Below are positions 3 through 14,472 of a DNA stretch of 14,472 bases, piece after piece. This stretch comes from an uncultured archaeon (GTDB lineage Archaea; Asgardarchaeota; Heimdallarchaeia; Heimdallarchaeales; Heimdallarchaeaceae). Where the stretch lies: NCBI GenBank assembly GCA_964534625.1, contig CAZHRF010000060.1, positions 1 through 14,472 of the forward strand. The letters run 5' to 3'. Position 1 is the first letter of the stretch; every line of letters starts with the position of its first letter. The notes under the pieces are model-generated. The model was not told the DNA's origin. It did no database searches and saw only the letters and a program-made list of their open reading frames with translations. Both the position numbers and the translations under genes were made by a program.

Positions 3-848
3 TTATCTTCCTTCCTCTGTCCCCTCAGAGGATGGAACTACGAACCCTTTTTTTATTAATTCCTTATAGAAATCTATTCTTCTATCCTTAAATAAATTAT
101 TCCTGGTGTTGAGCCATTTATTCTTAGCCTCATTAACATCTATTTCTACTATTTTTACTTCTTCTGTATCTTTTTCTGCTTTTTGTAAGACTTCCATTTT
201 AGGGGAAGTTATTTGGCTCTGCCCAGTGAATCCTATTTCAACAGCCCCATTTTTTTCCGTTCCTATTCTATTGGCTGTAATTGTAAAAACTTTATTTTCT
301 ATTGATCTAGATAACATAGCTGTTTGGCTATAAGGTAATACGAGATTAGCCGAATGTGCAATTATATCCGCCCCTTTAAGCGCTAATATACGTGTTGCTT
401 CAGGAAAGATCCAATCAAAACATATAATTACGCCTATCTTTGCTTTCCCTATATCAATAGGTTCAAATCTATTGTTACCTGCTGTGAAAAAGAGTTTTTC
501 TCGATCAAATAGATGCATCTTTCTATAAGTAGCTATATAGCCATCTGGTCCTATAGTTATTGCAGAATTATAAAAACGATTACTCTCTTTTTCACAGATT
601 CCACTAACAATATAAGCATTCTTTTTTTCTGCTATATCTATTAATGTACTTGAAAATGGCCCTCTAGGTATGGTTTCAGCGCAAATTTCGAGTTCCTCTT
701 TATTTATAAAAGTATATCCAGAATTTGCCAATTCAGGTAAAACAATAAGATCAATTTTTTCTAACCCTTCTAGGTTTTTTCTAATTATTTTAATATTTGT
801 TTCTACATCTTTTAATTTTGGTTTGAATTGAAGAAAACCAATTTTCAT
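3..848 (-). CDS. Carbon-nitrogen hydrolase (nitrilase superfamily)
   Basis: Catalytic triad motifs are present: LIVLPEL (Glu), YRKMHLF (Lys), IICFDWIFPE (Cys), plus ANRIG and GQSQI, and DRR near the C-terminus. Confidence 0.95.
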   Translation of the reverse strand: MKIGFLQFKPKLKDVETNIKIIRKNLEGLEKIDLIVLPELANSGYTFINKEELEICAETIPRGPFSSTLIDIAEKKNAYIVSGICEKESNRFYNSAITIGPDGYIATYRKMHLFDREKLFFTAGNNRFEPIDIGKAKIGVIICFDWIFPEATRILALKGADIIAHSANLVLPYSQTAMLSRSIENKVFTITANRIGTEKNGAVEIGFTGQSQITSPKMEVLQKAEKDTEEVKIVEIDVNEAKNKWLNTRNNLFKDRRIDFYKELIKKGFVVPSSEGTEEGR

Positions 849-918
849 ATATACACAGGGGTATTTTCGCTTTTTAAAACTTTTTTCTTGAAAAAAATCT
901 ATTTTTACTTATTTTTTT

Positions 919-1018
919 CATAGACCTTAGAGTTCATCTCACTTGAGAAATATATGGACAGCTAAGTATGCTTAAACCATCGCAAAAAAGTTTACTGAGA
1001 TGAACTTTGAAGTTCGTG
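919..1018. mobile_element. MITE-like element, copy 1 (100 bp, ~21-23-bp imperfect TIRs, flanked by T7/T8)
   Basis: Ends CATAGACCTTAGAGTTCATCTCA ... TGAGATGAACTTTGAAGTTCGTG. Colinear with 14366-14464 (about 73/100 identical by manual alignment). Flanks are ATTTTTTT and TTTTTTTT. Confidence 0.75.
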
Positions 1019-1042
1019 TTTTTTTTCTTCTTCACTTATATT

Positions 1043-1750
1043 TTACTGCTCTTCTACTTCTTCCTTTCTTTCATCTTTAGTCTTCATCTCAGAATCTAAC
1101 TGTTTTTTACTTTTACCGCTTACCATTTCTAATCTACCTTTCCAATCGAATTCTTCAAATCCATCTACTCTTTTTCTTCTTTTTTGTTGCACATTATCTT
1201 CAATTCTGTAAAGACCAGTATAAAAAGAATCTATCTGATTTCTTCTCTTTAGGAAAACCTCTCTTTCTTCTGCTCTTTTCTCAAAATCAAAGAGATATTT
1301 TATGTATTCTCTCAAACTCATTTTTTTAGAACTTAAAGTTTTAGTAATAGAATAAGTTATTGAGGATATTTCTAAAATGATTAATGTACCCCAAAATATT
1401 ATCCTCAATATTATGACGTCAATTTTAAAAAAAGATAGGATTACTATAGGCAAATATGATGCTGTTAAAACTGCTACAGGTAATGCTACAACCAAAAAAA
1501 AGAGTTCATTAAATACTATGGCTATAGCATACCCTCTACCCGTCAAATACCGTATTAATAGTCCAGATGTAAAACTTATACTTACTGCACCTATTGCCAC
1601 CCATAAGATGATTTGTAATATAACTATATTTTCAACATAGGAATAAATAAGAAAGAATATCGCAGCTCCTGCGAGTATTATAAATTGAAGAAAATTCATT
1701 AAGTCTACAGATTTCTTCTTTCTTCTTGGAAGTCCATGCATTTTTTTCAA
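1043..1750 (-). CDS. Uncharacterised 4-TM membrane protein with charged cytoplasmic C-terminus (paralog A)
   Basis: Four hydrophobic segments. Shares GRGY, YLP, Y.KY.F, IEDN and FEEF.WK.R motifs with 1850..2569. Start is TTG at 1750 or ATG at 1741. Confidence 0.85.
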   Translation of the reverse strand: MKKMHGLPRRKKKSVDLMNFLQFIILAGAAIFFLIYSYVENIVILQIILWVAIGAVSISFTSGLLIRYLTGRGYAIAIVFNELFFLVVALPVAVLTASYLPIVILSFFKIDVIILRIIFWGTLIILEISSITYSITKTLSSKKMSLREYIKYLFDFEKRAEEREVFLKRRNQIDSFYTGLYRIEDNVQQKRRKRVDGFEEFDWKGRLEMVSGKSKKQLDSEMKTKDERKEEVEEQ

Positions 1751-2862: not shown

Positions 2863-5250
2863 CTATAGTTTATTCTTTCTCTTTTTGATTACATTAACAG
2901 CTTGGACAGCCAATAATGAACCACCTATAAATAGTAGCGCAAACGCATTGTATCCTGTTTCTTCTACTTCTGGTAACTCTACTTTAAATGAATATTCCTT
3001 TACAGTTGTATAAGAATAGTTTCCGACGTTTTCTGCATAGAATCTGTAACTTACAATATCACCCACTTCCAAAAATCCTTCTATTTCATATTGAAAACAG
3101 AGTTGTCTGAGGCTGTCATTTGTAGCAAAGGTTAGAGATTTTGTAAGATTGAGATCCATAGCTACAGAAAATTCATCTGTTTCATTTAATTCTAATCTAT
3201 CAATTATCAGAGAGATATTCACATGCAGTTTTCCATTTGGTAATTCTTCTATTGCTGTAAGATTTGTCATGTTTACTTCAATGACATAAAGTCTATTTGG
3301 TCTAAAATCAGTTGCTCTTGTTAGCTTTTCCTCTTGTGCTGTTTCTTTGTAAAATATAACAGGATCTGAAAAAATCAAATCAGTTTTTCCTTCTACATAA
3401 TTTACTGTATACGTATAATTTGCACTTAAAATCGGTTCTTCTTCTATTCCAATATATTCAATGCGTATTCTATATTCAACTAATGTATCATAGGGTTGTG
3501 CTGGAATTGTTTCAGTATATACATATATAGAACCTGTTTGGTCAGTAATTGTCATTTGTTTTTCTGTCCATGTACTCTCATTGTTTACTCTATAATCGAG
3601 ATATACTTCAACATTTGTTCCCTCGGGTCTAAACGCTTGTGCTGATATTGTTACGTCATCAAAGTTTGTTGGGTTCTCCATATCCCGTAAAACAAATTCT
3701 ATAATTGGTGGCACAGTGAATGTATCTTCTGATGGATATTCATCAATATAACCACTACCTAAATCAAATTCTGTAGCAGTAGGATCTTCAGCATAGTAGT
3801 TACCAATATAACTTTCATGAATTGCATCATATGCATAAAATGTACCTGATGAAATAGTATCTATTTCCAAATAATCTCCATTTATTTGTTCAAAATTATT
3901 TTTATATACTCTGAAGTTTTCTATATTTTGGAATTTAAACACAACATCATCAATATCATCAAAAGTATTTAAGGCAATTATAGGATTGTTAATGTTCCTT
4001 ATACTTATAGCTAAATCAGTATTGAGTATATTACCACCTTGAATATTTATTTTAGGTGTGTTTTTTACTCTTATCCCTAGCTCTGCATTTCTTATCTCAT
4101 TTCCATATAATCTAATTCCTTCTGAAAAGAGTATATTTATCCCAGTTTCAGCATCAGATACAGTATTACTAGCAAATGACGTTCTTTCTGCTGACCAAGC
4201 ATTTATACCATAAGTACAATTCAATGCGGAATTTGCAGTAACAGCACTATCGTCTAATTTCTCAAAATAATAACCCATATAAGAATCATACACGCTATTC
4301 CCTATAATTTGTAAAAATCTAGAATACATTAGTATCATGGGTTCATCTGAATAGTGAAAATTATTACTATTTATCTCACTTAGAATAATGTCATCAATAA
4401 CAAATCCTTTTGCGGAATTATTAACAACATTATTTTCAATGACAAGTGATTGGCCACCGTCTATTTTAATTGCGGTATCTGTTATTTGATCAAAAGTATT
4501 GCTTAATAGTCGAACAGGAGCTAATGATTCTCCATAGAAACCCATCGTTAAGTCTTTGAACTCATTATCTTCTATTCTTACTCTACCTCTGAAGTATGAT
4601 AGGGGGAGTTCTCCATTTCTAAAAATGTTATTTGTTATTTCTCCTGTATCGACACGCTCTAAGTAGAATGAAGAGTTATTTTCCACAATAGAATTCGATA
4701 AATAAAGTGCCCCATAGGATACTTCGGCTTCGGTTTGAATAAAGTTTGTTCCATTAATATTTAAAGAGGAAGTGTCCCCAAATATTAAGCTAGATTCTAT
4801 TTGACAATCCACTATTTCTGCTCCTCCTCGATCTAAGTTTAAAATAGTGTGTTCAATTGTTACATTGTCAAACACTATATCGTCAGCAGTTGATTGTTTA
4901 TCAATAGTCAAAGGATGATCAGCATCTACAACTTGAATAATAGAGTTGTAAATAAATAAAGAACCTCTCACATATATTAAAGGTTCAACAGTTTCATTGC
5001 CAGTGTCATCAACTTGAAATGTTAAAACAGAATTATCAATAGTTAATGACCCTTCGTCATCAATTAGAATGCTTCCGTTAATAAGCTGTTCTTGATCGGT
5101 CCAACTTACATCATCGTCTATAGTCTGTGTGTAATCTTCAGGTTGAATAAAAATATTATTATCAATATTTGTTATAGCTTGTCCTATGCTAACCATGCTT
5201 ATTATAAAAGTTAACACTATCAAGCCTTTTACCCAGTTTGGTATTTTCAT
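2863..5250 (-). CDS. Cell-surface protein with right-handed parallel beta-helix (PbH1/NosD-like) repeats, Ig-like region and C-terminal TM anchor
   Basis: N-terminal signal peptide (MKIPNWVKGLIVLTFIISMVSIGQA), ~22-aa repeats of the I..N.F/V...G type, acidic composition, many N-x-S/T sequons, and a C-terminal hydrophobic helix followed by KKRKNK. SD-like GAGGT upstream. Confidence 0.85.
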   Translation of the reverse strand: MKIPNWVKGLIVLTFIISMVSIGQAITNIDNNIFIQPEDYTQTIDDDVSWTDQEQLINGSILIDDEGSLTIDNSVLTFQVDDTGNETVEPLIYVRGSLFIYNSIIQVVDADHPLTIDKQSTADDIVFDNVTIEHTILNLDRGGAEIVDCQIESSLIFGDTSSLNINGTNFIQTEAEVSYGALYLSNSIVENNSSFYLERVDTGEITNNIFRNGELPLSYFRGRVRIEDNEFKDLTMGFYGESLAPVRLLSNTFDQITDTAIKIDGGQSLVIENNVVNNSAKGFVIDDIILSEINSNNFHYSDEPMILMYSRFLQIIGNSVYDSYMGYYFEKLDDSAVTANSALNCTYGINAWSAERTSFASNTVSDAETGINILFSEGIRLYGNEIRNAELGIRVKNTPKINIQGGNILNTDLAISIRNINNPIIALNTFDDIDDVVFKFQNIENFRVYKNNFEQINGDYLEIDTISSGTFYAYDAIHESYIGNYYAEDPTATEFDLGSGYIDEYPSEDTFTVPPIIEFVLRDMENPTNFDDVTISAQAFRPEGTNVEVYLDYRVNNESTWTEKQMTITDQTGSIYVYTETIPAQPYDTLVEYRIRIEYIGIEEEPILSANYTYTVNYVEGKTDLIFSDPVIFYKETAQEEKLTRATDFRPNRLYVIEVNMTNLTAIEELPNGKLHVNISLIIDRLELNETDEFSVAMDLNLTKSLTFATNDSLRQLCFQYEIEGFLEVGDIVSYRFYAENVGNYSYTTVKEYSFKVELPEVEETGYNAFALLFIGGSLLAVQAVNVIKKRKNKL

Positions 5251-10797: not shown

Positions 10798-10905
10798 GAC
10801 CGGGTAGTCAAGCTTGGTATGATGCATGCTTGGGGATAGTTTACCATAAATGGTTAACTACCAAGCTGCATGTGGCCCCGAGTTCAAATCTCGGCCTGGT
10901 CACCA
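10798..10905 (+). tRNA. tRNA-Pro (anticodon GGG) with a 31-nt intron at the canonical 37/38 position and encoded CCA
   Basis: Acceptor GACCGGG/CCTGGTC, D arm GTCA/TGAT, anticodon stem CATGC/GCATG, loop TT-GGG-G|intron 10836-10866|T, T arm CCGAG-TTCAAAT-CTCGG, and ACCA 3' end. Confidence 0.95.
10836..10866 (+). other. Archaeal tRNA intron with strict bulge-helix-bulge motif
   Basis: Central 4-bp helix TTGG (10830-33)/CCAA (10861-64), 3-nt bulges GGA and GCT, and intron hairpin TAGTTTACCA-TAAA-TGGTTAACTA. Confidence 0.93.
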
Positions 10906-10907
10906 TG

Positions 10908-10923
10908 ATTTTCTTTTTCTTTT
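10908..10923 (+). terminator. Oligo-T terminator of the tRNA gene
   Basis: T-rich run (TTTTCTTTTTCTTTT) immediately after CCA. Confidence 0.5.
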
Positions 10924-10946
10924 CCCATTGTGTTTTTTCCCATATT

Positions 10947-10954
10947 TTTATATA
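10947..10954 (+). promoter_or_regulatory. Candidate TATA box for the downstream large ORF
   Basis: TTTATATA about 22 bp upstream of the in-frame GTG at 10976. Confidence 0.4.
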
Positions 10955-10975
10955 AAAAACTCTCGTTCATTATTT

Positions 10976-13285
10976 GTGTTTCATCAAGCAGTTAAGTTAT
11001 TCTTTAATCAAGAGTTACACTCTTTAGACTCTTCTATTTCTTTTAACACCTTCTATTCCTATTTTACTGGGCTTTGCTCACGTTTTTCTAAATATTTTCA
11101 TTCACCCTTACCTGTTGATCATGAACTTATTGATATCATTTCTTCTTTCTTTTCTTCTCTCTCCACTTTTTTATTCAATTCGTTTTTTCCCTCTTCTTCG
11201 GCTAATCCTTCATTTCTTGTTCTTTCTTCTTCCGAGTCGTATATTTTATCAAGATATTTTCTTTATTGTTCTTCTTATCCTATCACTTGGCGTAAACATT
11301 CTTTTGAATCTCTTATGAAAGCATGGAGAAAGATACATTCCTTTTTCAATAATACTGCTACTGGTGATAACCCAGTAACTAATGAATTATTATTTCGACA
11401 TGCACGCACCTCTCTTCACGGATTTGATCAAGTTGACATTTTTACTTCTTCATCACTTTCGAGCGAATCTTTTCATTTGAATATTGTAGAATTCAAAGGT
11501 CAATTAAGTTATCGTAATATGCTTATTAACGTTACCAACCCTCGTTATCGTAATTCGGATCATTTTTTAACTATCCTTCACCAAATTAAGTTATATTACA
11601 AAGATCATATATCACATTTATTGAAAAAAGCCAAAGTATCTACTAATGATATTCAAGACTTTTTTACTTATTTCAATCAACTACTTACAAACAGATACAA
11701 ATATACAGCTACAGGGATTGGTAATGATTTTCTCCTAAAATTATCTAGTGGAAACTTTCTTTCTGTTTTATCTGATTATATGCTTAAAAGTAAAATTTTT
11801 GATATTTCTTCTCTCTTCACTTTTTTAAAATTAGTTATCAAATACAACCAATTAATTGCTTTAACTCAAAATGCCAGCTGTTTTAACGTTTTATTAAAGA
11901 AAAATGACCTCTCTCTTACCTGTACAATTGATAAAAACATATTACAACGATGTATTATTTCTATTTCTTCAAACTCAAACGAACATTCTTTTTCATTTGA
12001 GGATTTTCTGGTAAAATTTAAAACAGATAGCTGCCCTGACGGAGATCCTCTCTTTTTGATGTACCTTGAAAAAAAAATCAAGAATACAGATTCGACTACT
12101 AGGCTAGTCCATGTTATTAAAGAATATACTCTTTCTGATTTTCAAAAAATGATTCTTCAACCTTCTTTATTTCTTCAAAGCATGAATACCATTCAAAACG
12201 AGTTTTTGATGCAGATATTAAATTATTTAATTAAAAACAAACTGAATGATCAACCTATAATCACTTATAGTTTAGAACTGTGTTATTCTGGAAATAGAAA
12301 CAATTTATCTTTTATTTCTCAGAGAATGAACAACTACCTTATCTACAAATACGATAAAATAACTAATTTACTACTTCCCAAGAGAGTTATTTTCAATTCT
12401 AAAAGGGACACATCAGCCTATGAAAAAATCGTAAAATCCTTTAATCTATCAAAGATCCTTGAAAAGTCAGATAGAACTATTGATTCCTTGCTTGATGATA
12501 TAACTAATGATTGTTCTTATTCTTATGCCTTTGACAAACAGTTTTTCTTTATCAGTTTACTTAAAAAGCGGACTCCGTTTATTTATCCGCGTTTAACACA
12601 TTTCGAAAACAATAATTGTTCATTATACGATACAAAACACATAATTTTTTATTCAACAAATCTCCAATTGTTACGTAGTGATAAGTATCATATTTCAACG
12701 ATCTATTATCCTCGATTGGCATTTTCTTGGGGAACTTTTTTTGATCATACTGAATTAAACAAATTTACTATGAGCAGTCCTTTTACTCTTTATAAAGAAA
12801 GAGAAGGATTGGTTTTTAGATTATTTCGCAAACCCAATACTAAAAAATATGTCAAATCTTGGAAGAAATTGCTCGCAGATAGAAATTACAAACGCTCCAC
12901 TATTGATTTACTGGATAAATATCAAGCTTCAAAGGGTATAGTTATCAGAAAAAAAGGGAAAAAATGCAAGCAAACGCTTGAAATTCTTCAAGTAATAATT
13001 ACAGAATATGTTACTAACTGGAATATATTCTCAGATTGGATTCGAAACCATCACAAAAAGGGAAATGAAGTCAAATTTGAATCCTTTGTTGATAATTATT
13101 TCAGAAAACAATTCAAGATAGAGAATAACAGCTATAAATTTGCAAACCAAAAGTTTCTACCAGCTGTCTCCACAATCAATAATAGTTCAATAACTTACTC
13201 TTTCCTTTTCCCTTCTCATAATTTATTTTTATTACAATTCATGATATCACTTAGTAAGGACCTAGAACTAGCTAATAACGAGTAA
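10976..13285 (+). CDS. Large hypothetical protein with PD-(D/E)XK nuclease-like domain(s); start revised from 10850
   Basis: The ORF-track start at 10850 lies inside the tRNA intron. In-frame GTG 10976 (after a TATA box) or ATG 11315 are plausible starts. Motifs NE...QVDIF...IVEFK...QIKLY. Confidence 0.7.
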   Translation: MFHQAVKLFFNQELHSLDSSISFNTFYSYFTGLCSRFSKYFHSPLPVDHELIDIISSFFSSLSTFLFNSFFPSSSANPSFLVLSSSESYILSRYFLYCSSYPITWRKHSFESLMKAWRKIHSFFNNTATGDNPVTNELLFRHARTSLHGFDQVDIFTSSSLSSESFHLNIVEFKGQLSYRNMLINVTNPRYRNSDHFLTILHQIKLYYKDHISHLLKKAKVSTNDIQDFFTYFNQLLTNRYKYTATGIGNDFLLKLSSGNFLSVLSDYMLKSKIFDISSLFTFLKLVIKYNQLIALTQNASCFNVLLKKNDLSLTCTIDKNILQRCIISISSNSNEHSFSFEDFLVKFKTDSCPDGDPLFLMYLEKKIKNTDSTTRLVHVIKEYTLSDFQKMILQPSLFLQSMNTIQNEFLMQILNYLIKNKLNDQPIITYSLELCYSGNRNNLSFISQRMNNYLIYKYDKITNLLLPKRVIFNSKRDTSAYEKIVKSFNLSKILEKSDRTIDSLLDDITNDCSYSYAFDKQFFFISLLKKRTPFIYPRLTHFENNNCSLYDTKHIIFYSTNLQLLRSDKYHISTIYYPRLAFSWGTFFDHTELNKFTMSSPFTLYKEREGLVFRLFRKPNTKKYVKSWKKLLADRNYKRSTIDLLDKYQASKGIVIRKKGKKCKQTLEILQVIITEYVTNWNIFSDWIRNHHKKGNEVKFESFVDNYFRKQFKIENNSYKFANQKFLPAVSTINNSSITYSFLFPSHNLFLLQFMISLSKDLELANNE

Positions 13286-14292: not shown

Positions 14293-14365
14293 GTTTTTCT
14301 ATGGTTAAAAATTTATTTTCATAGAAAAATGCTTTTTCGATATATCTTTGAGTTATTAAAAAAAA

Positions 14366-14464
14366 CATGAATCTTAGAGTTCATCTTATCTAACAAAAAT
14401 ATAGACTGCAAAGTATGATTAGCATAGGGAGAAATGACAACAGAGATGAACTTTGAAGTTCATG
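14366..14464. mobile_element. MITE-like element, copy 2 (99 bp, 21-bp imperfect TIRs, flanked by A8/A8)
   Basis: Ends CATGAATCTTAGAGTTCATCT ... AGATGAACTTTGAAGTTCATG. Flanks are A8 at 14358-14365 and A8 at 14465-14472. Confidence 0.78.
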
Positions 14465-14472
14465 AAAAAAAA

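Follow-up and report, generated by a model that had tools for sequence, protein, structure and literature searches.

How does a sequence of about 100 bp come to stand twice on one archaeal contig, each time between runs of a single base, and what, if it is mobile, moves it and directs it to such runs? The window (the whole stretch of DNA that was analysed, 14,472 nucleotides long) makes up the entire contig C60 of a genome of 3.37 Mb, 120 contigs and 32% GC. This genome encodes a full-length eukaryote-type actin (442 bits), and no methyl-coenzyme M reductase alpha subunit (MCR_alpha, PF02249) was found in it; together with the Promethearchaeota relatives of the transposase described below, these features are consistent with a Heimdall-group Asgard archaeon. 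An initial annotation of the window had proposed that the two elements belong to a new MITE family that inserts into, and duplicates, oligo(A/T) tracts.

The two elements are indeed colinear and in one orientation, at an identity of 76% by BLAST or 78% over MAFFT columns (the annotation gave ~73%), and both start CAT(G/A) and end (A/G)TG (Table 1). An A8 run borders copy 2 on both sides, as described. Copy 2 itself is where it was said to be, except that the start originally given, 14358, takes in the left A8 run, so that the element proper is the shorter interval in Table 1. The internal block thought to be conserved is kept as a GC-TAAGTATG-TTA region in two of the three subfamilies defined below, the third keeping TAAG only. 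Copy 1 separates the stop of ORF 1043-1750(-) from the start of a CN-hydrolase gene, 3-848(-), and a tRNA scan of the window found no tRNAs.

Several other features of the window and genome were noted in passing. ORF 1043-1750 (-) has a marginal DUF7875 match only, and the 811-aa ORF at 10850-13285 (+) has no Pfam match even at an E of 1. Positions 2749-2840, between ORFs 1850-2569 and 2863-5250, hold a copy of another dispersed repeat of ~100 bp with more than 25 copies, its core resembling AAAACCTCGCGGGTGACAAGTCACCTATCCCAAAGTAAGC and being followed by a T run and then by ...AAGAAAATAAAAAAGTTACAAAA; one member of this second family has the MITE C14:60896-61032 inserted at its end. The first 50 bases of the window (GCTTATCTTCCTTCCTCTGTCCCCTCAGAGG...) recur, in either orientation, at the ends of contigs C6, C13 and C26, and the left end of the window is therefore read as an assembly break in a repeat. 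GTTACGTACCCAGTTGTACCCAAAAGAACTCAT and its complement also recur at contig ends (e.g. C3, C19, C30, C36, C55, C61, C73, C89 and C106), and this motif is another high-copy assembly-breaking repeat.

Table 1. Coordinates and flanks of the two window elements, of direct repeats at other MITE copies in the genome, and of homologous elements with both ends visible in other genomes.
Feature	Location	Strand	Details
MITE copy 1	919-1018	+	subfamily A, 100 bp
T7 run, left target copy of MITE copy 1	912-918	.	sequence read
T8 run, right target copy of MITE copy 1	1019-1026	.	sequence read
MITE copy 2	14366-14464	+	subfamily B, 99 bp, without ORF; BLAST, MAFFT, nhmmer
A8 run, left target copy of MITE copy 2	14358-14365	.	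sequence read; same pattern at 23/26 family copies
A8 run, right target copy of MITE copy 2	14465-14472	.	sequence read; contig C60 stops at 14472
Left terminal inverted repeat of MITE copy 2, CATGAATCTTAGAGTTCATCT	14366-14386	+	1 mismatch vs family consensus
Right terminal inverted repeat of MITE copy 2, AGATGAACTTTGAAGTTCATG	14444-14464	+	0 mismatches vs family consensus
8-bp direct repeat	C12:47599		ATTTTTTT on both sides
8-bp direct repeat	C14:60896		AAAAAAAG on both sides
8-bp direct repeat	C63:12705		AGCTA[T/G]TA, i.e. AGCTATTA/AGCTAGTA
Homologous element, flanks A9/A7	L044 (MK-D1)		
Homologous element, flanks A14/A8	L045		
Homologous element, flanks A8/A8	L049		
Homologous element, flanks A8/A7	L051		
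Homologous element, flanks A9/A8	L054		
Homologous element, flanks A7/A8	L059		
Homologous elements, flanks T8/T8	L053, L062		
Homologous element, flanks T8/T5	L056		
Homologous element, flanks T8/T11	L047		
Homologous element, exception	L057		A-rich but mixed
Homologous element, exception	L063		no run
Homologous element, exception	L065		decayed

An nhmmer profile iterated to convergence found 30 hits in the genome, of which 26-27, spread over 19 contigs, are full length and the rest fragments, and BLAST of copy 2 against its own genome gave 47 matches; the many-copy family predicted from two members is thus real. Its copies, 99-137 bp long, form three subfamilies, with 9, 9 and 4 members, and some singletons. 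Copy 2 groups with eight other copies at 74-88% identity, and copy 1 is identical to C11:70017-70116, so some copies are recent. The terminal inverted repeats of the family, ~21 bp and imperfect, start CATGAACCTTAGAGTTCATCT and end AGATGAACTTTGAAGTTCATG, with 20 of 21 positions complementary when two G-T pairs are counted. No copy lies within, or holds, an ORF of at least 90 aa. Contigs C9, C12, C67 and C71 end inside or right beside copies, and on C60 and C112 a copy lies a few hundred bases from the end, which is expected because repeats disrupt short-read assembly. Neither BLAST of the MITE against 40 relatives from the same family or order nor an exact-pattern scan over one genome per species revealed a copy beyond the present genome. 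One right-end piece of the MITE, present at C18:46968-47070 and C6:72099-72198, sits within a longer segment that is duplicated at these two loci (flanks 92-96% identical), and it was therefore copied along with other sequence.

The flanks of this family carry the argument about its target. With elements oriented alike, the runs are A/A at 13 of the 26 copies and T/T at 10, and mixed at none; if the two sides were independent, flanks this concordant would have a probability of ~1e-7. Subfamily A contains cores, identical or different at no more than a few positions, with T/T flanks at C11, C60 and C44 and with A/A flanks at C4, C2 and C14. Because near-identical cores occur in both polarities, the run is not element sequence and the element can lie in either orientation. 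Matching flanks, whose lack at other copies the annotation had named as an argument against duplicated targets, were found at 23 of 26 copies (MITE copies C71, C112 and C59 are without clean run pairs), and with both polarities on near-identical cores and no mixed pair its proposal that the runs are duplicated homopolymer targets holds.

It must be kept in mind that a homopolymer flank alone cannot by itself prove duplication. Three copies have a flank that includes a non-homopolymer base, which makes the target-site duplication (TSD) readable, and each time it is 8 bp (Table 1), in line with the ~8 bp first suggested. Run lengths in the MITEs range from 5 to 9 with a mode of 7, the mode in copies of the insertion sequence (IS) described below being 8. 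Since four MITE copies have runs of exactly 7/7, as expected if the duplication were 7 bp or if each run had lost one base, we state the TSD as 7-8 bp, and to judge from these flanks 8 bp is most likely. For the MITE at C14:60896, inside the second ~100-bp repeat family, a paralogous empty site was sought and no clean one was found; its paralogues yield only the 8-bp AAAAAAAG repeat, because the junction falls at the ragged end of the host repeat.

A cognate transposase, which the annotation had suggested looking for between the same ends, does exist. The left-end pattern, scanned in one genome per species and in metagenome contigs, matched nothing among the former and a single contig among the latter, Ga0129302_1029623 (L042, 2,427 bp), on the minus strand of which lies a 2,007-bp IS with one ORF of 561 aa (P0001). 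With this IS the MITEs have 25 nt in common at the left end and 22 nt at the right, whereas their interior of ~50 bp has no similarity to it; shared ends around a different interior are the usual relation of a MITE to its parent. The first 25 nt of copy 1 agree with the IS left end at 24 of 25 positions, positions 8-21 of the left repeat of copy 2 reproduce it exactly, and the 22 nt at window 14443-14464 agree with the IS right end at 20 of 22. The full IS is unassembled in this genome, where only its ends are seen, at contig breaks: its left 54 nt have matches at the contig ends C12:72447-72500 and C67:11417-11462, and its last ~60-146 nt at the end of C9 and in a relic at C47:10341. The outer flanks of the three contig-end copies (C12, C67, C9) are A8, T8 and T8. 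What had been postulated as a non-autonomous element mobilised in trans has, then, an autonomous 2,007-bp partner with the same ends.

The flanks of the IS on L042 are 96-98% identical to C78:667-847 and C1:192788-193032 of the present genome, where both sites are uninterrupted (CCTGAAAAAAAT continuing into AATAAAA, and ATCTCC continuing into TTTAAAAAATTAG). A close strain therefore carries the IS at sites that are empty here, which argues that the IS is mobile; at the empty C78 site a single A7T stands at the junction. L042 has no matching TSD of its own because its flanks derive from two different loci, and it is either an assembly chimera that joins two IS copies or the product of a rearrangement.

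The ends at C47:10341 and C9 were also considered as left ends of an IS481-like element, since a decayed rve-type gene adjoins C47:10341; alignment shows them to be right ends of the 2-kb IS. A multi-copy IS481/rve-type IS is present in the genome in its own right, at C47:3159-4090 (a frameshifted copy) and at contig ends C27, C74 and C91, with ends like CTAAACCAACATCGTTAACA.TATAAAG.GAAGTTAC.CTGAGCA, and a decayed paralogue at C47:10490-11500 lies beside the solo end of the 2-kb IS.

The 561-aa protein consists of an N-terminal four-Cys zinc ribbon, a helical DNA-binding region, an RNase-H-like core and a helical insertion domain of ~250 residues. In an alignment of its homologues C24, C27, C58, C63, D155, D212, E461 and C233xxH236 are invariant or nearly so. 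D155/D212/E461 with C233xxH236 form a DDE triad and the C/D-x2-H motif of the Mutator-type group, and the protein is classed as a distant Mutator/IS256-type DDE enzyme. Its own matches to profile models are below threshold (Pfam Transposase_mut, 19.4 vs a cut-off of 21; Pfam MULE, 19.4 bits vs 27.6; NCBIfam IS256, 32 bits vs 150), the ISH6 model does not match it at an E of up to 10, and it fails the curated tests for IS256, ISH6, ISL3 and IS66. Weak matches recur among 49 relatives, to MULE in 43 (best 1.5e-7), Transposase_mut in 35 and DDE_Tnp_ISL3 in 15 in Pfam, to IS256 in 46, IS66 in 28 and the 'Zn-binding variant' of IS256 in 24 in NCBIfam, and to the ISH6 model in 11 (best 1.9e-6). A full HMMER search collected 653 representative clusters, including many full-length homologues of 550-590 aa, labelled 'hypothetical protein' in databases. 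At the start of contig C63 (C63:1-1481, L043) the genome also holds a distant paralogue of the transposase, 23% identical and broken by a TAG stop.

Searched by sequence, the solved structures gave the IS256-family ISCth4 transposase as the sole meaningful match. The AlphaFold2 model (pLDDT 92.6) retrieves Hermes, the P-element transposase and ISCth4 in Foldseek, each at E ~2e-5, and in VIA-align ISCth4 comes first with Z 12.3 over 328 residues (spanning 1-501), ahead of Hermes (11.7) and the P element (9.4); the predicted fold is thus closest to ISCth4 and Hermes, the two tied. Identity to the hAT and P-element transposases is 8-14%. The first 95 residues, folded alone (pLDDT 92), gave no clear match in a fold search. 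A WRKY-type N-terminal finger, raised by marginal PDB sequence matches (E 0.03), was dropped, as the isolated-domain fold search contained no WRKY entry and its best Z was 3.0.

These results bear on the two groups with CAT termini that the annotation had named. The IS4 family has a DDE_Tnp_1-type transposase and a TSD of 10-12 bp; an IS4-like (IS231/ISH8) enzyme is contradicted by the lack of any IS4-type Pfam or NCBIfam match in P0001 and the 49 relatives and by a TSD of ~8 bp, and the CAT termini alone agree with it. A P-element or THAP protein is not borne out either, P0001 having no THAP match in Pfam, although the P-element transposase and Hermes do figure among the structural matches. 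BED and hAT dimerisation domains likewise gave no Pfam match, and no GTP-binding domain was detected.

Promethearchaeum syntrophicum MK-D1, Lokiarchaeum ossiferum and many Promethearchaeota MAGs encode full-length homologues of the transposase at 30-37% identity, and more distant matches, confined to the N-terminal half, come from a few bacteria and from Methanoperedens. Delimited by their own inverted repeats, the homologous elements are ~1.8 kb long, start (C/T)AT(G/A) and have a AAGTTAATCT-like core in common with the element here. One-base runs flank 10 of the 13 that have both ends visible, in the ranges A7-14/A7-8 and T8/T5-11 (Table 1); where one end is visible, five elements have A8, A8, T7, T7 and T9 and a sixth (L050) has A5. 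Both polarities of the run relative to the ORF occur. Because homologous ~1.8-kb elements in other Asgard genomes share A7-9/T8 flanks, A/T-run targeting is family-wide across the Asgard homologues, and modal runs of 8/8 that are bounded by other bases fix the TSD at ~8 bp. MK-D1 has a single copy of its IS and hence offers no multi-copy flank statistics. One full-length homologue lies on a 1.7-kb contig (L052, DATEYD010000062.1) binned in a 'Candidatus Paceibacterota bacterium' MAG; this is probably a mis-binned IS contig.

We therefore consider it very likely that both window elements are MITE copies of ~100 bp which consist of little more than the ends of a ~2.0-kb IS and are moved in trans by its A/T-run-selecting 561-aa transposase. 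This rests on the repeat family with its ends and concordant flanks, on the full-length partner and the two empty IS sites, on the catalytic residues and fold of the enzyme, and on the flanks of the Asgard homologues. In the mechanism that we propose, the MITE retains only the ~21-25-bp ends of the ~2.0-kb IS, on which the IS transposase would act in trans; the driver would be the 561-aa-encoding IS itself and not a relative. The transposase would select a run of ~8 A:T pairs of one polarity and cut the target strands ~8 bp apart (7-8 bp from the flanks), a geometry that we infer, after which the element ends would be joined to the target and gap repair would leave one copy of the run on each side. 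Entry in either orientation would then produce copies that read A...A or T...T. Recognition of the A-tract might depend on its narrow minor groove, on its rigidity or on a histone-free state.

What else might place such sequences beside T runs? A structured non-coding RNA, or a REP-like terminator hairpin held there by selection and not mobile at all, would account for several of the observations: the plus strand forms a long terminal helix (-24 to -26 kcal/mol, z -3.4 to -4.2) in which two G-U pairs turn into mismatches on the opposite strand, all copies are intergenic, and in the T-strand reading each copy is a hairpin with a T run after it. However, the helix is without covariation, one-sided changes breaking a pair 61 times and keeping it 44 times and double changes 7 times vs 2, and 24 of 26 copies retain a C-A mismatch at helix position 8. 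The Rfam scan of the window gave no match at the element, the T run is found in either polarity with respect to the core, and the same ends enclose a transposase gene elsewhere, so we regard an immobile RNA gene or terminator hairpin as most unlikely. The orientation data weigh in the same way against the idea that the A/T runs are part of the element, or are made without staggered cleavage of the target, and hence reflect no homopolymer preference. At any single copy such a flank is indeed indistinguishable from element sequence, and the commonest run length is 7 in MITEs and 8 in IS copies; but the polarity is independent of core or ORF orientation, here and in other Asgard genomes, runs with a foreign base are repeated exactly on both sides, and the empty C78 site already has the single A7T at its junction. 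That the runs belong to the element is accordingly highly improbable.

The remaining alternative concerns the driver and not the target. The MITEs might be moved by another enzyme, e.g. the IS481-like transposase whose decayed gene lies beside the C47:10341 solo end, given that this IS481/rve-type pseudogene begins ~150 bp inside that end and that an intact 561-aa gene is unassembled in this genome. Yet the right terminus of the 2-kb IS and the C47 end can be aligned over ~146 bp, whereas the ends of the IS481-like paralogue C47:3159-4090 are unrelated, IS ends with the right flanks stand at three contig breaks, and homologues of the 561-aa protein elsewhere carry similar ends and flanks. We think a different driver improbable, and retain the 561-aa transposase as the enzyme that very probably moves the MITEs.

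The annotation had further suggested that intergenic A/T tracts serve the element as a safe harbour, and this idea survives in part. All 26 copies lie outside ORFs of at least 90 aa, while ~76% of the 5,153 A/T runs of at least 7 in the genome fall inside long open frames, so that insertion into genes is either avoided or purged. The second strand of the idea, that the tracts are terminators, fared less well. Oligo-T on the sense strand is the polarity of an archaeal terminator, and in 14 of the 17 copies within 120 bp of a gene 3' end the T run is on the sense strand of that gene; but 68% of all intergenic runs at that 3' position have sense-strand T as well (p = 0.3). As the excess is not above this background, the element seems to follow runs without selecting terminators among them, and a terminator preference was rejected. 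Since the run is restored on both sides, a terminator-type run would stay beside the gene after insertion, and this regeneration of the T run next to a gene may explain why the family is tolerated.

If these readings are right, the family offers a testable example of a DDE transposase with specificity for homopolymer runs, assigns a function to widespread Asgard 'hypothetical proteins', and explains some assembly breaks in Asgard MAGs (here at least C9, C12, C67 and C71). The enzyme may be of interest for site-selective integration tools and for the origin of eukaryotic hAT, P and Mutator transposons. Taken alone the case is of moderate interest; it would be of more if the lineage proves distinct, Asgard-wide and strict in its poly(dA:dT) rule. 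A literature search, incomplete and not covering ISfinder, found no account of Asgard archaeal MITEs and no IS described as targeting homopolymer runs. We see about equal reason to accept and to doubt the wider proposal that the 561-aa protein and its relatives form an undescribed IS family, known to date almost exclusively from Asgard archaea, within the Mutator/IS256-hAT-like insertion-domain DDE group, one that integrates near-exclusively at 8-bp poly(dA:dT) with duplication of the run, follows an intergenic 'safe harbour' rule from Lokiarchaeia-type to Heimdall-type genomes, and has spawned MITEs. It is less likely that this Asgard IS lineage stands close to the stock of the eukaryotic transposons with 8-bp TSDs.

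Among known systems, the Correia, RUP and Sulfolobus SM MITEs resemble the elements described here in being small, gene-less, multi-copy and intergenic and in keeping only the ends of a parent IS; they differ in the family of the parent and in that the duplicated target here is a homopolymer. The hAT (Hermes) and P elements share with the present family an 8-bp TSD and a large helical insertion domain in an RNase-H fold, and P elements in addition start CATG. Unlike them, the 561-aa enzyme has no detected BED, THAP, GTP-binding or hAT dimerisation domain and its hosts are archaea; the hAT and P families are not known to target homopolymers. IS256 and ISCth4 are similar in their DDE core, in the C/D-x2-H motif after the second Asp, in TNxxE around the Glu, in the helical insertion that separates the second Asp from the Glu and in a TSD of 8-9 bp, and they supply both the top whole-protein fold match (ISCth4, at the Z of 12.3 over 328 residues) and the top sequence matches. 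Elements of the IS256 family, as ISfinder describes them, are 1.2-1.5 kb long with ends that begin GG/GA, whereas those described here are 1.8-2.0 kb with ends in CAT or TAT, and their transposase has 561 aa instead of about 400, scores 32 bits where the IS256 model asks for 150, and is set apart by its ~250-residue insertion between Asp and Glu and its four-Cys zinc-ribbon N terminus. IS256 insertion is apparently random (PMC3942029), in contrast to the insertion into A/T runs seen here. The nearest known targeting is that of ISH6 (p-MULT 2, mostly archaeal), a Mutator-like IS with an 8-bp TSD that duplicates the AT-rich target AANATNTT and for which a bias of insertion to intergenic regions has been proposed (PMC3942029). 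The present family agrees with ISH6 in being archaeal and Mutator-like, in its 8-bp TSD and in duplicating an AT-rich target, and departs from it in that the target is a homopolymer run and not a mixed, palindrome-like A/T motif.
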